64,000 nt of DNA from NCBI GenBank assembly GCA_965207225.1, contig CBDBLV010000005.1, positions 1,664,001 to 1,728,000 of the forward strand. The letters run 5' to 3'. This document shows positions 2,717 to 35,706 of the stretch, piece after piece (position 1 is the first letter of the stretch; every line of letters starts with the position of its first letter). A model generated the notes under the pieces. The model ran no database searches, was not told the DNA's origin, and saw only the letters and a program-made list of their open reading frames with translations. The position numbers were made by a program, and so were the translations under genes. Source of the stretch: Dehalococcoidia bacterium (lineage in GTDB: Bacteria; Chloroflexota; Dehalococcoidia; Plut-88900).

Positions 2717-3721
2717 TCAGGTGACGAGGGGGAGGACGTGTTCAGCGAAGTACTGGATTGTTTCGTCGACCGTGGGGCCGGGAACTTCGGGGATGTGCTG
2801 GGGGGCGAGGATGATTTCGTCGAGGCCTTCAACCGTAGAAAGCTGCTTGATGCAGGCGATGGCGTCTTCTTTGTCGCCGCCGAGGGCGAAGCGGTCAATG
2901 TACTTGCCGGGGATACGGAATTCTTCGATGACGTAGGAGCGGGAGTGTCGGGAGGGGTTGTAATTGGCCTTGAGCTTCTCGATTAAGGGCAGGTCTTCTT
3001 CGTCGAAGAGGTCAGGGTTGGACATGTTGATAATGACGCCGACAGGGCCGTTCAGCTTCCACCGGGCGACATCCCGGTCGGGGCCCAGGCTGGTCTGGAG
3101 CCAGCAGGATAGGCTGGTATCTTCGGGTCGCTTGCCTACTTCCGCGGCCGCTTCCTTGAACATGTTGACGCCTGTGGCCATGCTAGCCGGGTTTCGTTCC
3201 CTGAGGATGATTGCGCCGTCGGCCATGCGGCCCGAGGCCCGGGTGAGCCGGGGGCCGGTGGCGGCAACGTAGATGGGGACGTTGGTCGGGCCATTCAGCC
3301 AACCGAGCTTGCCCCTGCCTCCTTCGTCGAATTCTACCTCTTCATTCTGGAGGAGGCCCTTGACCTGGTCGATGTAGGTTTCCAGTCGGGAGATGGAGAC
3401 GGGACGTCGGCCGATGGACCGGACGCCGCTGTCGCCGGTGCTGATGCCGGCGCGGATACGGCCCGTGGCGATTTCGTTGAGGGAGGCGAAGGCGCTGGCG
3501 GTGACGCTGGCGTGTCGGGTGGAGGGCATAGTGACGCCGACGCCCAGGGTGATGCGGGAGGTACTGAGGGCACAGGCGGTCATCTCGACGTAGACCTCAC
3601 GGCAGATGCGCTGGAGGTCGCCGAACCAGACGGTGTCGAAGCCGAGGGCCTCGATTTTCTGGACGCGTTCGACGATCCGGGGCATGGGTTGGTTGCCGAA
3701 GACGCTGACGGCGAATTTCAT
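2717..3721 (-). CDS. LLM class flavin/F420-dependent oxidoreductase
   Basis: GFDTVWFGD, ITLGVGVT, PIYVAATGPR motifs (Mer-like). Confidence 0.85.
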   Translation of the reverse strand: MKFAVSVFGNQPMPRIVERVQKIEALGFDTVWFGDLQRICREVYVEMTACALSTSRITLGVGVTMPSTRHASVTASAFASLNEIATGRIRAGISTGDSGVRSIGRRPVSISRLETYIDQVKGLLQNEEVEFDEGGRGKLGWLNGPTNVPIYVAATGPRLTRASGRMADGAIILRERNPASMATGVNMFKEAAAEVGKRPEDTSLSCWLQTSLGPDRDVARWKLNGPVGVIINMSNPDLFDEEDLPLIEKLKANYNPSRHSRSYVIEEFRIPGKYIDRFALGGDKEDAIACIKQLSTVEGLDEIILAPQHIPEVPGPTVDETIQYFAEHVLPLVT

Positions 3722-3917: not shown

Positions 3918-6617
3918 TTATTGGCTGAGTTCTGAGAGGCGTTGGAGGAGGTTGGACTCTTCTTCTTGCCAGCCGGTGAGTCGGGAGCGCTCTTTCTCTA
4001 CGACGTTGGCCGGGGCCTTGGATAGGAACTGTTCGTTGGAGAGTCGGGACTGGACCTGGCCGATGCGTTTGCGGAGGTCTTCTAGGGAGGACTCGAGGCG
4101 CTGGCGTTCCCCGGCGAAGTCGAAGAGGCCGGCGAGGGGGAGGAATACGCGGGTGGCTTTTTCGACGACCATAATGGAGTTTTCGGGTTGTGGGGCGTCG
4201 GCGGGACGGGCCTCGACTGTGCAGACGGCGAGGTTTTCGAGGAAGGAGCGTCCACCGGCGCCTAGGGTCTCGCCGTCAAGCAGGACGGCGGGGACTTTCT
4301 TTCCTGCCTCGACCTTGCGCTCGGCGCGGACGTTGCGGACGCCGCGGACGAGGGACATGAGAAGGTCGGCCCACTCCTCGGCCTCTGGGTTGATGGCAGA
4401 GGGGTCGGGAGTGGGGTAGGGGGCGATCATTGTGGAGTCGGGGCGGTCTGGGGAGTCGGGCATACGCTGGATGAGGCTCTGCCAGATTTCTTCGGTGATG
4501 AAGGGCATGAAGGGGTGGAGGAGTCGGAGGGAGGACTCCAGGACGTGGGCGAGGACCGGGGCGGGGGAGGGGGAGTCGGAATTGTCTCGGAGGCGGACCT
4601 TGGCGATTTCGATATACCAGTCGCAGAACTCGTTCCAGATGAAATCGTGGACGTATTCCTGGGCGTCGCCTAGTCGGAAGGAGGTGAGGGCACGGGTGAC
4701 GTCTTCGATGGTGCGGTTGAGTCGGCTGAGAATCCAGCGGTCTTCTATGGGGAGGGAGATAGGAGAGGAGTCACCCTCACCCTGACCCTCTCCCATCAAG
4801 GGAGAGGGGAGGGAGGACTGGTCTAGGATGGAGATTACGTATCGGGAGGCGTTCCAGAGCTTGTTGGTGAAGTTGCGGCTGGAGCGGATCTTGGCCTGAC
4901 TGAGCCGGCTGTCGTTGCCGGGAGCGGTGCCGACGGTGAGGGCAAAGCGGAGGGCGTCGGCGCCGTGTTCGTCGATAATGTCCAAGGGGTTGAGGACGTT
5001 GCCCTTGACTTTGCTCATCTTCTCGCCGTGCTCATCCTGGATGAGGCCATGGAGGTAGACGGTGTGGAAGGGGATGTCGTCCATGTTCTGGATGCCCATC
5101 ATGATCATGCGGGCGACCCAGAAGAAGAGGATGTCGTAGCCGGTCTCGAGGACAGAGCCGGGGTAGAAGTAGCGGAGGTCTTCGGTGTCGTCGGGCCAGC
5201 CGAGGGTAGAGTGGGGCCAGAGGCCGGAGCTGAACCAGGTGTCCAGGACGTCGGGGTCCTGGCGGATGTTGGTGGAGGGGCAGGCTTCACAGGTGGTCGG
5301 GTCTTCGAGGGATACGGTGAGATGGTCGCAGCCGTCGCAGTACCAGACGGGGATGCGGTGGCCCCACCAGAGCTGGCGGCTGATGCACCAGTCCCGGATG
5401 TTGTCCATCCAGTTGAGGTAGACCTTGGTGAAGCGGTCGGGAACTATGCGTATGCGGCCCTCGGTGACGGCTCGGGCGGCGGCGTCGGCCATGGGAGCGA
5501 CCTTGACGAACCACTGTTTGCCGACGGTCGGGTCAACGACAGTGTTGCAGCGCTGGCAGTGGCCGACGGAGTGAGTTAGGGGTTCGACCTTTTCGAGGAG
5601 GCCGTCGGATTCCAGGTCTTCGAGGATCCGGGTGCGGCACTCGGCGACAGACATGCCCTGGTATTGGGGGCCTGCGGCGTCGGTCATGGTGGACTGGGGG
5701 CCGATGACGGTGATCAGGGGCAAATCGTGGCGTTGGGCGATATCGAAGTCGTTGGGGTCGTGGGCGGGTGTGACTTTGACGGCGCCCGTGCCGAACTCGA
5801 GGTCTACGACGGAGTCCGTGATGACGGGGACGGGTCGGTTGAGGCGTGGGAGCAGCACGTCGTGTCCGACCAAGTCTGCGAAGCGTTCATCGTCGGGATT
5901 GACGGCGACGGCGGTGTCGCCGAGGAGGGTCTCGGGGCGGGTGGTGGCGACGGTGAGGTGGCGGGTCGGGTCCAGGGAGTGGGGATAACGGATGTAGTAG
6001 AGCTTGCTATCGACTTCCTGGTGGATTACTTCGAGGTCTGAGAGGGCGGTGGAGCAGCGGGGGCACCAGTTGATGATGCGCTCGCCGCGGTAGATGAGGC
6101 CCTTGTTGTAGAGGTTGACGAAGGTGGTGCGGACGGCCCGGCTGGGGCCCTCGTCGAGGGTGAAGCGTTCTCGGGACCAGTCGCAGGAGGCGCCGAGTCG
6201 CTTGTGCTGCTCGGCGATGGTGCGTCCGTATTGCCGGACCCACTGCCAGACCCTTTCGACGAAGGCCTCCCGGCCGATTTCCTGCCGGGTCTTGCCCTCC
6301 TTGACGAGTTGGCGTTCGACGACGACCTGGGTGGCGATGCCTGCGTGGTCGGAGCCCGGGAGCCAGAGGGTGGGGTCGCCCATCATGCGGTGCCAGCGGA
6401 TGAGGGCGTCTTCGGCGGCGGCGGTGAGGGCGTGGCCGAGGTGGAGTTCACCGGTGACGTTGGGCGGGGGCATGATGATGACAAAGGGCTGCTTGCCCTC
6501 CTGTATGCGAGGCTTGAAGTAGCCTTTGTCCATCCAGGACTTGTAGATGCGGCCTTCGACCTCTGAGGGGTCGTATACCTTGGGGATACGGGCGAGATTT
6601 TCAGTGCGCGTTGTCAT
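3918..6617 (-). CDS. valS: Valine--tRNA ligase
   Basis: PPPNVTGELHLGH (HIGH), DWCISRQLWWGH, KMSK motifs, C-terminal coiled-coil arm. Confidence 0.98.
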   Translation of the reverse strand: MTTRTENLARIPKVYDPSEVEGRIYKSWMDKGYFKPRIQEGKQPFVIIMPPPNVTGELHLGHALTAAAEDALIRWHRMMGDPTLWLPGSDHAGIATQVVVERQLVKEGKTRQEIGREAFVERVWQWVRQYGRTIAEQHKRLGASCDWSRERFTLDEGPSRAVRTTFVNLYNKGLIYRGERIINWCPRCSTALSDLEVIHQEVDSKLYYIRYPHSLDPTRHLTVATTRPETLLGDTAVAVNPDDERFADLVGHDVLLPRLNRPVPVITDSVVDLEFGTGAVKVTPAHDPNDFDIAQRHDLPLITVIGPQSTMTDAAGPQYQGMSVAECRTRILEDLESDGLLEKVEPLTHSVGHCQRCNTVVDPTVGKQWFVKVAPMADAAARAVTEGRIRIVPDRFTKVYLNWMDNIRDWCISRQLWWGHRIPVWYCDGCDHLTVSLEDPTTCEACPSTNIRQDPDVLDTWFSSGLWPHSTLGWPDDTEDLRYFYPGSVLETGYDILFFWVARMIMMGIQNMDDIPFHTVYLHGLIQDEHGEKMSKVKGNVLNPLDIIDEHGADALRFALTVGTAPGNDSRLSQAKIRSSRNFTNKLWNASRYVISILDQSSLPSPLMGEGQGEGDSSPISLPIEDRWILSRLNRTIEDVTRALTSFRLGDAQEYVHDFIWNEFCDWYIEIAKVRLRDNSDSPSPAPVLAHVLESSLRLLHPFMPFITEEIWQSLIQRMPDSPDRPDSTMIAPYPTPDPSAINPEAEEWADLLMSLVRGVRNVRAERKVEAGKKVPAVLLDGETLGAGGRSFLENLAVCTVEARPADAPQPENSIMVVEKATRVFLPLAGLFDFAGERQRLESSLEDLRKRIGQVQSRLSNEQFLSKAPANVVEKERSRLTGWQEEESNLLQRLSELSQ
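4771..4808. repeat. REP-like palindromic element inserted in frame in valS
   Basis: Matches 3823-3860; encodes PSPLMGEGQGEG on the valS strand. Confidence 0.8.
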
Positions 6618-6675
6618 GGTTGGGGTGTCGGGGGGAGGGCGGACTTTTCGGGACTTGCAAGCACGGTGTGGGTCG

Positions 6676-6705
6676 ATTCTAACTTTGAGGGGAATGGGGA
6701 GTCAA
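6676..6705 (-). promoter_or_regulatory. Putative sigma70 promoter of valS
   Basis: TTGACT-N18-TAGAAT on the minus strand ~60 nt upstream of the valS ATG. Confidence 0.55.
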
Positions 6706-7229
6706 TTGGAGGGGAGGGTGCGCCGCGTCACGCGGCATAGGATACCCGACTCACTCGGGAGGGACTCGGAGGAAGTCCCTGGGTCAACCGACCTACCTTG
6801 AGGCGAAAGCCGAGGGGGAAAACAGCATGTCGGTAAAGCGGCTACGGCCCCAAAGCGTTGTAGGGCCGGTTCCGCAAGACCCGCGCGATATGGTGAAGGC
6901 TTGATTGCTTGAACCCCAGTCTCCAGTTGGTGAAAATCGCCACCCGCCGGTAGAACGCTTGTAACCCGGCGCCGCTCATCGCATGGATGTGTCCTGTCAA
7001 TCCGTGCACCTCCGATGAGCGGGCAATGACCCATGCGGTCAATTCAAGGAGACGAACGGGGCACCTACAGTCGCGCTAGAACGTCCTATGCTGACGGAAC
7101 GCGGGATCGCCTAAGGGACGCGAGTCCTATGGTGACGGAGCCTCCGTAGTAGTCCGAGGACGGGAAAGCCGTCCACATGGCGAAGGGAGGCAGGTGTCAA
7201 ACCGAAACTCAGAAAAGGAGGTGCGCGAG

Positions 7230-9020
7230 ATGCGCAACGCCGAAACCATACTGGGAATCATTCGCGACAGAGGTACACGGGGACTGCCCGTGAACGACCT
7301 TTACCGCCAACTTTGGAACCCGAACCTGTACCTGACGGCCTACGGGCGTATCGCCAAGAACGACGGTGCGCTCACCCCAGGCGCAACACCGGAGACCGCA
7401 GACGGGATGAAGATGGACGACATCCACGCGATCATCGAGGCCCTCCGCTTCGAGCGCTACCGATGGACTCCGGCCCGCCGCGTATACATCCCGAAAGCCA
7501 ACGGGAAGCGGCGGCCACTCGGACTCCCAACGTGGTCGGACAAAGTGCTGCAAGAAGTTATGCGTCTCCTACTGGAGGCGTACTACGAACCGCAGTTCAG
7601 CGACCGGTCGCACGGCTTCCGGCCCAACCGTGGATGCCACACGGCGTTCACGGAGATAACCCGCACCTGGACAGGCACGACATGGTTCATCGAAGGAGAT
7701 ATCGCCGGTTGCTTCGACAACATCGACCATAAGGTGTTGCTGGAAATACTAGGCGAGAACATCCAGGACAACCGTTTCCTGCGGCTTGTTTCCAACCTCC
7801 TTGGGGCTGGCTACCTTGAGGACTGGAAGCTCAACGCCACCTACAGTGGCACACCTCAGGGAAGTGTGGTGAGTCCCATACTCGCCAACGTCTACCTAGA
7901 CCGGTTGGACAGGTTCGCGGAGGACGTGCTCTTGCCCGAATACAACCGTGGCACCGGACGACGGAAGAACCCGCAGTATCAAAGGGTTTCCAAACGAGTT
8001 ATGCGTCTACGGCAATCTGGCCATGCAAAGGAAGCGGCGGAACTTCGCCCACTCCTGCGCACCATGCCCAGCCACGACACCCATGACCCGGCCTACCGCC
8101 GTCTCCGGTACACACGGTACGCCGACGACTTTCTACTCGGTTTTGCGGGGCCAAAGAACGAGGCCGATGAGATCAAGGCCCGGCTAGGCAAGTTCCTGCA
8201 AGATAACCTCAAGCTGGAGCTATCCGACGCTAAAACCCTGGTCACCCACGGCCGCACTGAGGCAGCACGGTTCCTCGGCTACGAGGTCGTCGTTCAGGGG
8301 AGCAAAGACAGGCTCGACGCCAGTGGCCGCCGATCGGTCAATGGTATCATCGGGCTGCGCGTTCCCCAAGACGTCGTACGCGCCAAGAGCGCCGCCTACA
8401 TGCGTAACGGCAAACCAATCCACCTTGGAATACGAATTCATGACTCGCTTTACAGCATCGTGGAACAGTACCAGGCGGAGTACCGGGGTGTCGTCAACTA
8501 CTACCGGCGTGCAACCAACCTGGGCGCACTAAGCCATCTCCGTTGGGTCATGGAAATGTCACTTGCCAAGACACTCGCGGCAAAGCTGAAGATCAGCGTG
8601 CCACAGGTGTTCAAGCGGTACAAAACTACGATTCAGACTGACAAAGGGCCTCGCAAGGTCCTGATGGTGAAAGTGGCCGAGCCGGGCGAAAAGACGCTGG
8701 TGACGTACTGGGGCGGGGTTTCGCTTGCGCGGGACAACGCGGCAACCCTGGTCGATAAACACCCCCCGATACTCAATAGTCGGACGGAACTCGAACAGCG
8801 CCTGCGGGCCAACGTCTGCGAGCTTTGCGGCTCAACGGTGAAGGTCCAGGTGCACCACGTACGAGCGCTGAAAGACTTGCGAAAGAAGGGACGGGCCAAG
8901 CCGCCCGTTTGGGTGGAGGTCATGGCAGCACGGCGTCGCAAGACGCTCGTGGCCTGTGCGTCATGCCACGCGGACATCCACGCCGGACGCCCGCTGAAGC
9001 AGAACGAACAGGCAGCCTGA
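7230..9020 (+). CDS. ltrA: Group II intron reverse transcriptase/maturase with HNH endonuclease
   Basis: RPLGLP, HGFRPNRGCH, GTPQGS, RYADDF; C-terminal CELCG..VHH..RRRKTLVACASCHADIH; AGGAGG RBS at 7216. Confidence 0.95.
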   Translation: MRNAETILGIIRDRGTRGLPVNDLYRQLWNPNLYLTAYGRIAKNDGALTPGATPETADGMKMDDIHAIIEALRFERYRWTPARRVYIPKANGKRRPLGLPTWSDKVLQEVMRLLLEAYYEPQFSDRSHGFRPNRGCHTAFTEITRTWTGTTWFIEGDIAGCFDNIDHKVLLEILGENIQDNRFLRLVSNLLGAGYLEDWKLNATYSGTPQGSVVSPILANVYLDRLDRFAEDVLLPEYNRGTGRRKNPQYQRVSKRVMRLRQSGHAKEAAELRPLLRTMPSHDTHDPAYRRLRYTRYADDFLLGFAGPKNEADEIKARLGKFLQDNLKLELSDAKTLVTHGRTEAARFLGYEVVVQGSKDRLDASGRRSVNGIIGLRVPQDVVRAKSAAYMRNGKPIHLGIRIHDSLYSIVEQYQAEYRGVVNYYRRATNLGALSHLRWVMEMSLAKTLAAKLKISVPQVFKRYKTTIQTDKGPRKVLMVKVAEPGEKTLVTYWGGVSLARDNAATLVDKHPPILNSRTELEQRLRANVCELCGSTVKVQVHHVRALKDLRKKGRAKPPVWVEVMAARRRKTLVACASCHADIHAGRPLKQNEQAA

Positions 9021-9152
9021 GTACCAACCGTTGCAACAGATAGGTAGTGTTCCAACCGTGAAACGCCCAAACACCTTCCGTTCCCAACGGGGCCGGTGGT
9101 AGACTGGGACACGGCAGACCTTCCCTCGAAACAGCACTGGAGGTTCCGGAGC

Positions 9153-9653
9153 GTGGATACAAAACTCGTCTTCGTGATCCCGACCTTGGTCGGACTCCTC
9201 CTTGCATTCAGCTTGGCTTGCAGTGATGCAAAACAAGACCCTGTGCTTGCTCGGGAGCAGGTTGAACTGGACAGGCATCGTGACATGTGGGAGCAAACCC
9301 GCGCCCATGACTACACGTATGAGTACAGCGTACTCTGCGAGTGCCCGGATCACGCCAGCAAGACCGTCAAGGTCACTGTACTGGACGGGGACATAGAGTC
9401 AGTCGAAAGCGTAGGGTTCGTCGAGTCCGCCATCTATACAAAATCTGGTGGGCCAATGACAGAACTACCCCGCTACCACACCATCGACCGCTTTTTCGAC
9501 GTGATCCAAGAAGCCATTACCGGTGAGGCCGACCAACTTACCGTCAGCTACGACAGTGAGTTCGGGTACCCAACGAAAGTCGAGATTGACTACACCGTCA
9601 ATGCGATAGACGACGAGTATACCCTCAAGGTCAAAGCTTACTCGCCTCACTGA
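9153..9653 (+). CDS. Secreted lipoprotein (DUF6174-like), intron passenger gene
   Basis: GTG start behind GGAGG; hydrophobic signal ending SLAC; W..DYTYEYSVLCECP..TID..F..I..VSYDSEFGYP..DDE pattern; lies between RT stop and intron DV. Confidence 0.8.
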   Translation: MDTKLVFVIPTLVGLLLAFSLACSDAKQDPVLAREQVELDRHRDMWEQTRAHDYTYEYSVLCECPDHASKTVKVTVLDGDIESVESVGFVESAIYTKSGGPMTELPRYHTIDRFFDVIQEAITGEADQLTVSYDSEFGYPTKVEIDYTVNAIDDEYTLKVKAYSPH

Positions 9654-10076
9654 ACAGGCTCACACGAGCCTGGCCCCTACGATGCGGACGGTGCCACCGG
9701 CACCTCACCACAGACGCTACCTCCTGTAACGACACCGGAGAGCCGGATGACGCGAAAGTGTCACGTCCGGTTCGGAGGGGGGCCGACGGAAAAGTGCTCC
9801 ATTAGCGCGGAGTAACTCGCCGGCGGCCTACCCGACACTTGTAGGGTGAGCGGCAGTTTCTCAGGGGAGGCGCGGGCCAAGAGCCTTGCGAAATACCCGG
9901 GCATCGAGGGAGCGGCGTGAATGTGCGGTATATGGCACCGTGTTCATTGGCCCACGTGCGTGATTGACGCCCAGCTCAAGAAGGACCAACCATAGCTACG
10001 ATGCGCGTGGGCGCCGTGAATCATGGCGCGAAATATCATGGATCCGGTTAGAGCTTCCTCTACCGTCAGCTTGAGG

Positions 10077-10400
10077 TTACTCCTCTCCTACCTCGGAGAA
10101 GTTGGTGATGGCAACTTCGCCTTCTGGAAACTCGGCGACGATCTTCAGTTTCCCGCCTACTGCCTCAATGTAGGACCGCAAGCTGGATACGTACACATCG
10201 GCCCGCTGCTCCAGCTTGGAAACTGCGGGTTGGTTCACATTCAGCATCTTGGCCATGTCTCGCTGGGTTAGCGCCAGCGCCCGGCGAAGCTCGTGCAGCG
10301 GCATCTCGGCGAGCAACTCCCTCTTAAGGTCGTCGATGCGCCGCCGGCGCTCCGGCGTGAAATCGCTGGTCAGTTCGCTAAATGGATGGCGTCCACTCAT
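10077..10400 (-). CDS. XRE/HigA-type HTH antitoxin
   Basis: LHELRRALALTQ..QPAVSKLEQRAD..SSLRSYIEAVGGKL. Confidence 0.88.
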   Translation of the reverse strand: MSGRHPFSELTSDFTPERRRRIDDLKRELLAEMPLHELRRALALTQRDMAKMLNVNQPAVSKLEQRADVYVSSLRSYIEAVGGKLKIVAEFPEGEVAITNFSEVGEE

Positions 10401-10759
10401 TTGATCAGTCCTTCCTTTCGAAGCTCTTCAAGATGTTCATCGTAGAGGGCGTCGGCCACGGGCACGTACTCCTCATAGAACCGGTCGTTGCCTGTCTTGT
10501 CGCCTCCGATGAGCAGAATCGACGTTCGCCTGGGGTCGAAGGCGTAGAAGACTCGAAGGGGCCTGCCGGCACTCTGCGTTCGAAGCTCGCGCATAACACC
10601 GTGCCGAGAGCCGGTGATGTCTGAGGAGTAGGAGTATGGCAGGTTGGGGCCGTGCTCCATCAGCAACTCGACTCTGGCGGCTACTGCATCCTGCTGGTTC
10701 TCCGAAAGTTCCTGCCACCACCGCCTGAACTCATCCGTGTATTCGACCTCCCAAGGCAT
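10397..10759 (-). CDS. RelE/HigB (Gp49-like) toxin
   Basis: WEVEYTDEF..MRELR..LRVFYAFDPRRTSILLIGGDK; 4-nt overlap with antitoxin. Confidence 0.88.
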   Translation of the reverse strand: MPWEVEYTDEFRRWWQELSENQQDAVAARVELLMEHGPNLPYSYSSDITGSRHGVMRELRTQSAGRPLRVFYAFDPRRTSILLIGGDKTGNDRFYEEYVPVADALYDEHLEELRKEGLIK

Positions 10760-35631: not shown

Positions 35632-35706
35632 TGGAGCGGGAGACCGGACTCGAACCGGCGACAACCTGCTTGGAAGGCAGGGGCTCTACCACTGAGCTAC
35701 TCCCGC
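35632..35706 (-). tRNA. tRNA-Gly (TCC)
   Basis: GCGGGAG acceptor stem, CCTGC-CTTCCAA-GCAGG anticodon arm, TTCGA T-loop, encoded CCA. Confidence 0.96.

Follow-up and report, generated by a model that had tools for sequence, protein, structure and literature searches.

In the available part of the review by Zimmerly and Semper (2015; PMC4424553), bacterial group II introns are credited with their own intron-encoded protein (IEP) only; the variants named there are introns without an open reading frame (ORF), twintrons, altered splice sites, alternative splicing, degenerate IEPs and LAGLIDADG IEPs, and the term 'cargo' is absent from that text. Delivery of cargo is described, in the accessible part of a second source (PMC3898094), only for engineered targetrons and at a cost in efficiency. 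In our literature search, which covered few subscription journals and no supplements, we found no report of a natural passenger gene besides the IEP within a group II intron of a bacterium; such a report counts as not found, not as absent. Here we describe a group II intron in a 64,000-nt stretch of DNA (the window; contig CBDBLV010000005.1, positions 1,664,001 to 1,728,000, assembly GCA_965207225.1) from a sponge-associated Dehalococcoidia bacterium, which is very probably a natural cargo-carrying mobile intron: a retroelement of the LtrA type with a complete gene for a DUF6174 lipoprotein within its domain IV (DIV). As this slot holds different small genes in some relatives and is empty in others, these retroelements appear, from comparison of their copies, to move ordinary genes naturally.

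The complete intron, of the mitochondrial-like (ML)/IIA, LtrA-type class, occupies positions 6718–9836 of the window on the plus strand (3119 nt), beginning with GTGCGCC (the GUGCG motif) at 6718 and ending with ...CCTACCCGAC at 9836. These terminal motifs and the Rfam model RF00029 define it, and its ends coincide with the limits of identity to a second copy in another genome (L039) and with an empty site in the congeneric genome G008 that is colinear across 6717/9837. RF00029 (Intron_gpII, domains V and VI, DV and DVI) scored 62.8 bits against a cut-off of 40 over the full model (1–77) at 9738–9836 on the plus strand, with the AGC triad at 9741–9743 and the bulged A in CCUACCC, and the first 476 nt of the intron are 70–85% identical to 11 related introns in an alignment. 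The basal helix of DIV is formed by GGTGTC (7193–7198, plus strand), which overlaps the IEP start and is present in 12 of 12 aligned introns, and by GACACC (9731–9736, plus strand), directly 5' of DV; GACACY stands immediately before DV in the compared copies, with the exception of L031 (GATACT). The IEP (7194–9020, plus strand, 608 aa) has a reverse transcriptase (RT) domain with YADD, maturase domain X and a D/HNH endonuclease, with Pfam matches to RVT_1 (E = 4.5 × 10−31), Intron_maturas2 (5.2 × 10−14) and an AI2M-like HNH (8 × 10−14), and the YADD and CxxC...HH motifs are visible in its translation. Its match to TIGR04416 (E = 4.3 × 10−78, 262.9 bits) lies under the 300-bit cut-off of that model, and its best match in the PDB is LtrA of Ll.LtrB (5g2x_C; residues 35–595 aligned to 25–594, E = 3.4 × 10−115). 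An earlier reading of the same DNA (the original prediction) had named GUGCG, the IEP stop at 9020, the AGC triad, DVI and the YADD and HNH motifs, all of which are confirmed; the DV/DVI boundary that it proposed to check with Intron_gpII was recovered, both strands of the DIV helix that it had closing beyond the cargo are present and conserved in relatives, and its LtrA-type label holds because the alignment to LtrA runs over the full length. The spacer from the IEP stop (9020) to DV measures 717 nt, and since no second DV/DVI or other intron model was found in 6400–10100 even at E ≤ 10 in Rfam, the element is not a twintron.

This spacer holds the passenger gene (9153–9653, plus strand, 166 aa), which starts with GTG and has its own ribosome-binding site (GGAGG, 9139–9143) 9 nt upstream. 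As had been predicted from the ORF and its pattern, the product belongs to DUF6174 (Pfam PF19671, E = 3.9 × 10−31, 108.3 bits against a cut-off of 23.8), and its matches in the ESM Atlas are DUF6174 clusters only. The N-terminus has a hydrophobic stretch and a lipobox, read by eye as L21-A22-C23, which does not vary among the 25 homologues aligned (25/25). The cell-surface location of the original prediction stays a prediction made from the signal peptide and lipobox. We found 59 homologues of the passenger. In six diverged intron-borne copies of the gene the frames are open and the lipobox is kept, and the pairwise ratio of non-synonymous to synonymous substitutions (dN/dS) is 0.20–0.40, compared to 0.18–0.34 for the IEP among relatives and 0.64 for a membrane-protein cargo shared by L042 and L045. 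Judged by these substitution ratios, the DUF6174 cargo is a real gene under purifying selection. DUF6174 was found in 14 of 301 genomes of the class; 11 distant copies (27–40% identity) stand alone, neither an IEP nor a DV being present within 1.5 kb, and genome G005 has a free-standing copy, 51% identical, between metabolic genes and without the hairpin arms described below. DUF6174 is also an ordinary gene, and capture of the cargo from host chromosomes, or its donation to them, is plausible on this distribution. In G008, a DUF6174 gene (55% identical; L032, G008:C1:2983922–2984751) follows a remnant of the HNH region of an IEP, with neither a DIV 3' strand nor DV, and may be a passenger left over after decay of its intron. 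The DUF6174 cargo of L047 (L047:5889–6521) has a threefold tandem repeat (NADPEAVLARAQ) just past the lipobox that the other copies lack.

A scan for related IEPs, with one genome per species, gave 79 loci. The clade of the window intron comprises loci from Dehalococcoidia (Chloroflexota) metagenome-assembled genomes (MAGs), and on genome contigs the distance from IEP stop to DV is 376–790 nt in 8 of its 10 loci and 29 and 31 nt in the other two. For other relatives the corresponding distances are −22 to 73 nt (35 full-length loci, among them loci from cyanobacteria, Bacillota, Caldilineaceae and Poribacteria), −49 to 57 nt (48 metagenome loci) and 5–32 nt (7 further loci, measured with Rfam), that is, −49 to 73 nt in all 90 relatives from other phyla together; a different IEP class (that of Thiomargarita and similar), with 24 loci, was left out because its IEP C-terminus is unaligned and hence not comparable. 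The scan of metagenome contigs gave no close relative (IEP identity at most 64%) and no cargo. When the window copy and six further copies or fragments (COPY2, G011, G006, G010, L040A and L045B) are added to the 10 clade loci, 14 of the 17 have 340–825 nt in the slot with an ORF of at least 52 aa, and three have none (L040B, L046 and L045B, the first two of which are intact). The window copy, L039, L047 and L061a carry DUF6174, as do the decayed L061b and the copy linked to an IEP remnant in G008. The other cargoes are a DUF3224 protein in L043 (E = 7 × 10−41), a collagen-repeat lipoprotein on the opposite strand in L041 (genome G004), mutually unrelated small membrane proteins in L042 and L045 (a pair 74% identical), L044, L040A (opposite strand) and G006, a lipoprotein-like ORF in G011, a short ORF in G010 and, in COPY2, a 217-aa ORF that is preceded by a 21-nt tandem repeat and has a weak match to DUF429 (E = 0.004, under the Pfam cut-off). 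The slot ORF has a fixed position beside the IEP and most members of the clade carry something there, which would suit a role as an accessory factor, required by the intron for its splicing or mobility or for control of the host. We regard this explanation as extremely unlikely, given that the ORFs come from unrelated families (DUF6174, DUF3224, collagen repeats, several membrane proteins and a DUF429-like protein), that some lie on the opposite strand, that three copies, including the intact L040B and L046, and the relatives in other phyla do without cargo, and that DUF6174 also exists as a free-standing gene. By the content of these loci, the natural cargo intron of the window is no single curiosity but one instance of a clade-wide variable cargo slot, which goes beyond the original prediction; of the copies with the same, a different or no cargo that it proposed to look for elsewhere, all three kinds were found.

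Two of the copies, L045B and G011, have an extra insertion of ~510 nt at intron position ~375, within a small hairpin loop, with an opposite-strand ORF for a 140-aa membrane protein; this hairpin is probably domain II (DII). The coordinates of this second slot are L045:7270–7790 and L031:3640–4180, and the membrane protein of 140/141 aa is nearly identical in two genomes. We also observed ORF-less derivatives of the intron family in which DI–DIII are joined almost straight to DV (L040:6796–7747, and L036:4075–4472 in genome G037), one such derivative being present in an RNA-library contig at a depth of 101. The joints 7168>9809, 7186>9736 and 7196>9762 were considered as loss of cargo from the window intron and rejected, as they derive from ORF-less relatives.

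Movement is indicated by L039, a locus in another MAG that has the same intron with the same cargo, identical at 3116 of 3119 nt (99.9%), at an unrelated site: the alignment with the window copy stops 3 nt beyond the 5' end and 2 nt beyond the 3' end, and the flanks are unrelated. The L039 flanks are only 68–82% identical to a different region of the window's genome (C5:1544754–1555925), and therefore the two genomes are not the same. Because identity ends at the intron termini while the flanks are unrelated, intron and cargo appear, from this alignment, to have moved as one unit. Three insertions can also be compared to diverged, cargo-free empty sites, the empty alleles that the original prediction proposed to search for. 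For the window copy, the spacer upstream of valS continues colinearly into the higA-side sequence in G008 (...GTCAATTGGGCGGAGTG CTGGTAGGGTGAGCG...) with no indel; for the L039 copy, L061 aligns unbroken across both exons (205 columns, 76% identity); and COPY2 has an uninterrupted radC-like orthologue in L039 with no indel. An empty site for the L039 insertion in the window's own genome was not found in C5:1549801–1551700. COPY2 is the second related cargo-bearing intron of the window's genome (G000:C5:1551936–1555178, minus strand, 3243 nt); it shares 70% identity with the window intron across the first 1788 nt and lies in frame and in sense within a radC-like gene. The ML intron O.i.I2 also sits in radC, the same kind of host gene, according to PMC4424553. 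The region around COPY2 resembles a conjugative or phage-like island (ssb, radC-like gene, N6-methylase) and is a hot spot for introns. An intron of another class, with a 572-aa IEP whose stop adjoins DV and no cargo, is present as near-duplicates on two contigs (G000:C5:1547553–~1549950, near COPY2, and G000:C2:157231–~159600). A related intron (82% identical) is represented at G000:C4:836624–836994 by a 5' fragment, after which comes an IS256/MULE-like transposase ORF (393 aa).

Exon-binding site 1 (EBS1; CCTGTC in the window intron, 6993–6998, plus strand) covaries with the last 6 nt of the exon, intron-binding site 1 (IBS1), in an alignment of 12 introns. The EBS1:IBS1 pairing is exact for L039 (CCTGTC:GACAGG), COPY2 (TGACGT:ACGTCA), L040 (AGCCGC:GCGGCT) and both L045 and L047 (GTAGAC:GTCTAC), and has one G-U pair for L042 (GTCCAG:CTGGGC). 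EBS2 (ATCGC, 6936–6940, plus strand) is complementary to GCGAT at −12 to −8 of the L039 5' exon, and the homologous position covaries as well (GCCCT:AGGGC for COPY2, and GTGCC:GGCAC for L044 and L046). Introns bearing DUF6174 occupy at least four different insertion sites. Of the natural cargo-carrying retroelement that had been predicted, movement as a unit is supported by L039, the empty sites and the EBS/IBS covariation; its splicing and retrohoming are predicted, the indirect evidence being the near-identical copies at new sites, the empty sites and a 5'-truncated copy (L061a).

Comparison of the cargoes to an IEP tree shows that the two disagree. In a maximum-likelihood tree of 20 rows (support given as ultrafast bootstrap/SH-like approximate likelihood ratio test), the window copy is sister to the cargo-less L040B (100/99), L045 with its membrane protein is sister to the cargo-less L046 (100/99), and DUF6174, the 95/96-aa membrane protein and the lack of cargo each occur in both IEP subclades. 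The synonymous distance between the window copy and L047 is greater for the DUF6174 cargo (0.74) than for the IEP (0.42). L042 and L043 are orthologous insertions with flanks 84–91% identical and IEPs 99% identical (synonymous distance, dS, 0.015), whose slots hold 345 nt with a membrane protein vs. 494 nt with DUF3224, the break falling at the IEP stop and ~35 nt before DV; L040B and L041 are likewise orthologous, L041 having 545 extra nt at the same point. By these comparisons, cassettes are gained, lost and swapped between introns.

The cassette of the window copy is enclosed by a left arm (9030–9050, plus strand, GTTGCA ... GGTAGTGT) and a right arm (9714–9730, plus strand, ACGCTACC ... 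TGTAAC, with the motif RACACTACC), which pair in the minimum free energy (MFE) fold with 36 end-to-end pairs, a number reached by 0 of 15 shuffles. In cargo-bearing relatives of the commonest arrangement, GGTAGTGT lies 20–25 nt past the IEP stop and its complement ACACTACC (the RACACTACC motif) ~12 nt before the DIV 3' strand; the cargo-less L040B and L046 lack both. Only the right arm is recognisable in L031, and L041 has a different pair of 18-nt inverted repeats around its cassette. Because the inverted repeat is conserved, the hairpin probably insulates the cargo, keeping a loop of ~680 nt out of the catalytic core.

The inverted repeats in most cassettes (GGTAGTGT/ACACTACC, or the 18-nt pair of L041) are also what one would see if the cassette were a separate small mobile or recombining element that uses DIV as a safe harbour, turning over at the DNA level without the intron's RT and with the intron as a vehicle by accident. 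The occurrence of cassette ORFs in either orientation (opposite strand in L041 and L040A), the second slot in the DII-like hairpin loop with its 140-aa membrane ORF, and the swapping of cassettes between 99%-identical introns point the same way, and such an element would be compatible with the cargo moving together with the intron. We consider it unlikely: no transposase or recombinase is present in or beside the cassettes, the exact 9-mer arms (11 and 9 copies in the 4.03-Mb genome) are not enriched, and among the loci examined cassettes occur only within introns or their remnants, the close DUF6174 relatives elsewhere being either armless (G005) or attached to an IEP remnant (G008). A genome-wide search for arm pairs with one mismatch returned hundreds of chance pairs and was uninformative. 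By chance, that search turned up a 572-nt stretch bracketed by GGCAGTGT...ACACCACC at no fewer than six places in G000, probably an unrelated short repeat element, whose sites include C2:8728–9299, C5:161847–162418, C5:1834118–1834689, C5:1982138–1982709, C5:2022513–2023084 and C5:2069113–2069684.

Several observations weigh against a natural cargo-carrying mobile intron, and they concern the assemblies, the models and folds, the RNA libraries and the site of the window copy. All genomes are MAGs, that of the window being rated at 8.3% contamination, and consensus polishing of a repeat in long-read MAGs could inflate the 99.9% identity between the window copy and L039. The contamination estimate would also fit an assembly or binning artefact that joined an intron to an unrelated gene, as would the depth of the intron interior in Logan short-read contigs of run X1 (~49, about 8 times that of the flanks at 5.7–5.9), which marks a repeat and fits an element with many copies in that community, even if contig depth gauges copy number poorly. 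The contigs of the same run, however, tile 7217–9759 with 0 mismatches, one contig of 767 nt corresponding to 8993–9759, and run X5, a sponge metagenome from a different study, gave contigs with 0 mismatches at 8663–9156 and 9215–9732. As contigs from two studies bridge both the IEP–cargo junction and the junction of the cargo with the DIV 3' strand, there is no sign of misassembly, and the same architecture is present in more than 10 other assemblies; an artefact is almost certainly not the explanation. Misassembly, a second DV and a cargo confined to a single copy, the outcomes that would have spoken against the original prediction, were looked for and none was found.

In Rfam, the group-II-D1D4 families, on which the original prediction had also counted for the boundaries, gave no match in 6400–10100 at E ≤ 10, and the 5' boundary rests instead on the alignment to 11 related introns and on the empty sites. 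The AlphaFold2 model of the DUF6174 protein (25 homologues) has a mean confidence (predicted local distance difference test, pLDDT) of 52.8, too low for a fold search; PADLOC gave 0 matches for 10 of 10 cargo proteins, and NCBIfam gave nothing over its cut-off for them. With regard to the hairpin, at least 12 end-to-end pairs formed in 47 of 150 shuffles over 10 loci and the energy test is weak, only 4 of the 10 loci (the window copy, L045, L047 and L044) clearly beat their shuffles, COPY2 and L040A show no helix, and the arms are conserved in sequence, so that they allow no covariation test.

In the contigs of two metatranscriptome runs, no ligated-exon or lariat form of the window intron was found. 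The contigs (X19 and X20) contain only 90–95% identical relatives of DI–DIII, the 5' part of the IEP and DV, with 8416–9675 uncovered; as a test of expression they were discarded, since matches to such relatives alone say nothing about it. The missing RNA forms would be expected if cargo killed the intron and the copies were dead relics spread as DNA, by a conjugative or phage-like island or by gene conversion. Several homing sites do lie within an island with ssb, radC-like and N6-methylase genes that could spread by itself, and some copies are decayed (frameshifted IEPs in L031 and L045B, 5' truncation in L061a, internal deletion in L061b and a remnant in G008). Spread as dead DNA is nevertheless very unlikely: identity between the window copy and L039 ends at the intron termini, which island transfer or conversion would not give, the DUF6174-bearing introns have several insertion sites, EBS1 fits each new exon, and cargo-bearing copies have intact IEPs on which selection is purifying. 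The truncation of L061a is moreover the expected product of incomplete target-primed reverse transcription.

The remaining points against the mobile cargo intron concern the window copy's own site. The IBS1 of this copy (GGGAGG, 6712–6717, plus strand) matches EBS1 (CCUGUC) imperfectly, with 4 Watson-Crick pairs, 1 G-U pair and 1 mismatch, and the exon at the IBS2 position (TTGGA) is a poor match to EBS2. The copy is intergenic, lying between valS and a higBA-like pair, both on the opposite strand, and a simple scan found no sigma-70-like promoter for it on its own strand. Target pairing and position suggest that the window copy is probably an ectopic intergenic insertion by retrotransposition, the L039 site being of the cognate type, and it may be a silent one. 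The upstream neighbour (3918–6617, minus strand, 899 aa), taken from the ORF list, is presumably valS, as we recognised it from its translation, and the intron lies 100 nt upstream of its start. A sigma-70-like site at 6705–6676 on the minus strand (TTGACT-18-TAGAAT, 10/12), presumably for valS, is 12 nt from the insertion point, and by this spacing the insertion may affect upstream control of valS. Directly downstream of the intron are a HigA-like helix-turn-helix antitoxin (10077–10400, minus strand, 107 aa, Pfam HTH_37, E = 6.3 × 10−11) and a Gp49/HigB-like toxin (10397–10759, minus strand, 120 aa, Pfam Gp49, E = 1.6 × 10−16), a HigB/HigA-like toxin-antitoxin pair whose genes overlap by 4 nt. 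A tRNA gene at 35635–35706 on the minus strand (71.1 bits) is the sole other Rfam match in the 64-kb window.

From sequence comparisons we infer splicing, RNA-mediated copying and the role of the hairpin, and likewise that cassettes are exchanged by some route and that the lipoprotein is expressed and has a function. The intron with its cargo would be transcribed and the IEP made from DIV, and this protein would then aid RNA splicing; the lariat ribonucleoprotein would reverse-splice into DNA sites recognised via EBS1 and EBS2, the HNH domain would nick the opposite DNA strand, and RT would copy the entire 3.1-kb RNA, including the cargo, into the new site. An acquired hairpin between the IEP stop and the DIV 3' strand would hold in its loop the separately translatable lipoprotein gene. 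In a wider reading, the Dehalococcoidia introns would form an RNA-based cassette shuttle, in which small genes for envelope proteins are captured in the DIV and DII-like slots, passed between introns that share a cell, whether by template switching of the RT or through recombination in the conserved flanks, and retrotransposed into conjugative or phage-like islands and chromosomes across species of sponge symbionts; for this reading, the arguments in favour and against seem to us evenly balanced.

Among known systems, Ll.LtrB of Lactococcus lactis with its protein LtrA (ML/IIA) is alike in the whole length of the IEP, with RT, X, D and HNH endonuclease domains, in an ORF in DIV that starts at the DIV base, in GUGCG, DV and the bulged A of DVI, in guidance by EBS1 and EBS2, and in homing sites within genes that belong to a mobile island, the LtrB intron being located in a relaxase gene. 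Unlike Ll.LtrB, the intron described here has 717 nt and a second, unrelated gene between the IEP stop and DV. Twintrons and nested introns (Euglena, Trichodesmium, Thermosynechococcus and Methanosarcina) are alike in having extra sequence inside an intron, whereas the insert here, which contains no second DV/DVI, is a protein gene without intron features. Group II introns with LAGLIDADG ORFs (fungal mitochondria and Thiomargarita) also have a non-RT ORF inside the intron, but there LAGLIDADG replaces RT and serves mobility, whereas the present introns retain RT and have an extra ORF for which no part in mobility is apparent. Integrons resemble the present introns in a fixed slot with interchangeable single-gene cassettes, and integron cassettes are mostly of unknown function, often encoding secreted or membrane proteins. 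They differ in that the window intron contains no integrase-like ORF and the carrier is an ML retroelement rather than class C (the group IIC-attC introns), and in that integron cassettes are followed by attC, whereas the present cassettes are probably enclosed in a hairpin.

A lineage that keeps, spreads and swaps genes of 340–825 nt in DIV would show bacterial retroelements to be capable of mobilising ordinary genes by way of RNA, and the cassette shuttle, if true, would be a previously unrecognised route by which bacteria transfer genes horizontally via an RNA intermediate. One is also led to ask which role the small lipoproteins and membrane proteins play, be it in sponge-associated Dehalococcoidia or for the intron. 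A comparison can also be made to engineered targetrons, in which cargo occupies the same place (the loop of the DIVb hairpin, 3' of the ORF or replacing it) in the same size regime. According to PMC3898094, inserts of more than 1,000 nt drastically lower targetron efficiency, the DIVb loop is the best site and structure at the base of the insert matters; the natural cargoes, at 340–825 nt, are all under 830 nt and fit this size rule. They would thereby offer design rules for targetron cargo that evolution has tested, namely to insert directly behind the IEP stop, to close the insert with a hairpin and to respect an upper limit of size. Unlike targetrons, the present introns, which if correctly read are a natural 'targetron with cargo', keep the IEP in cis and carry diverse cassettes that are exchanged among introns and are under purifying selection.

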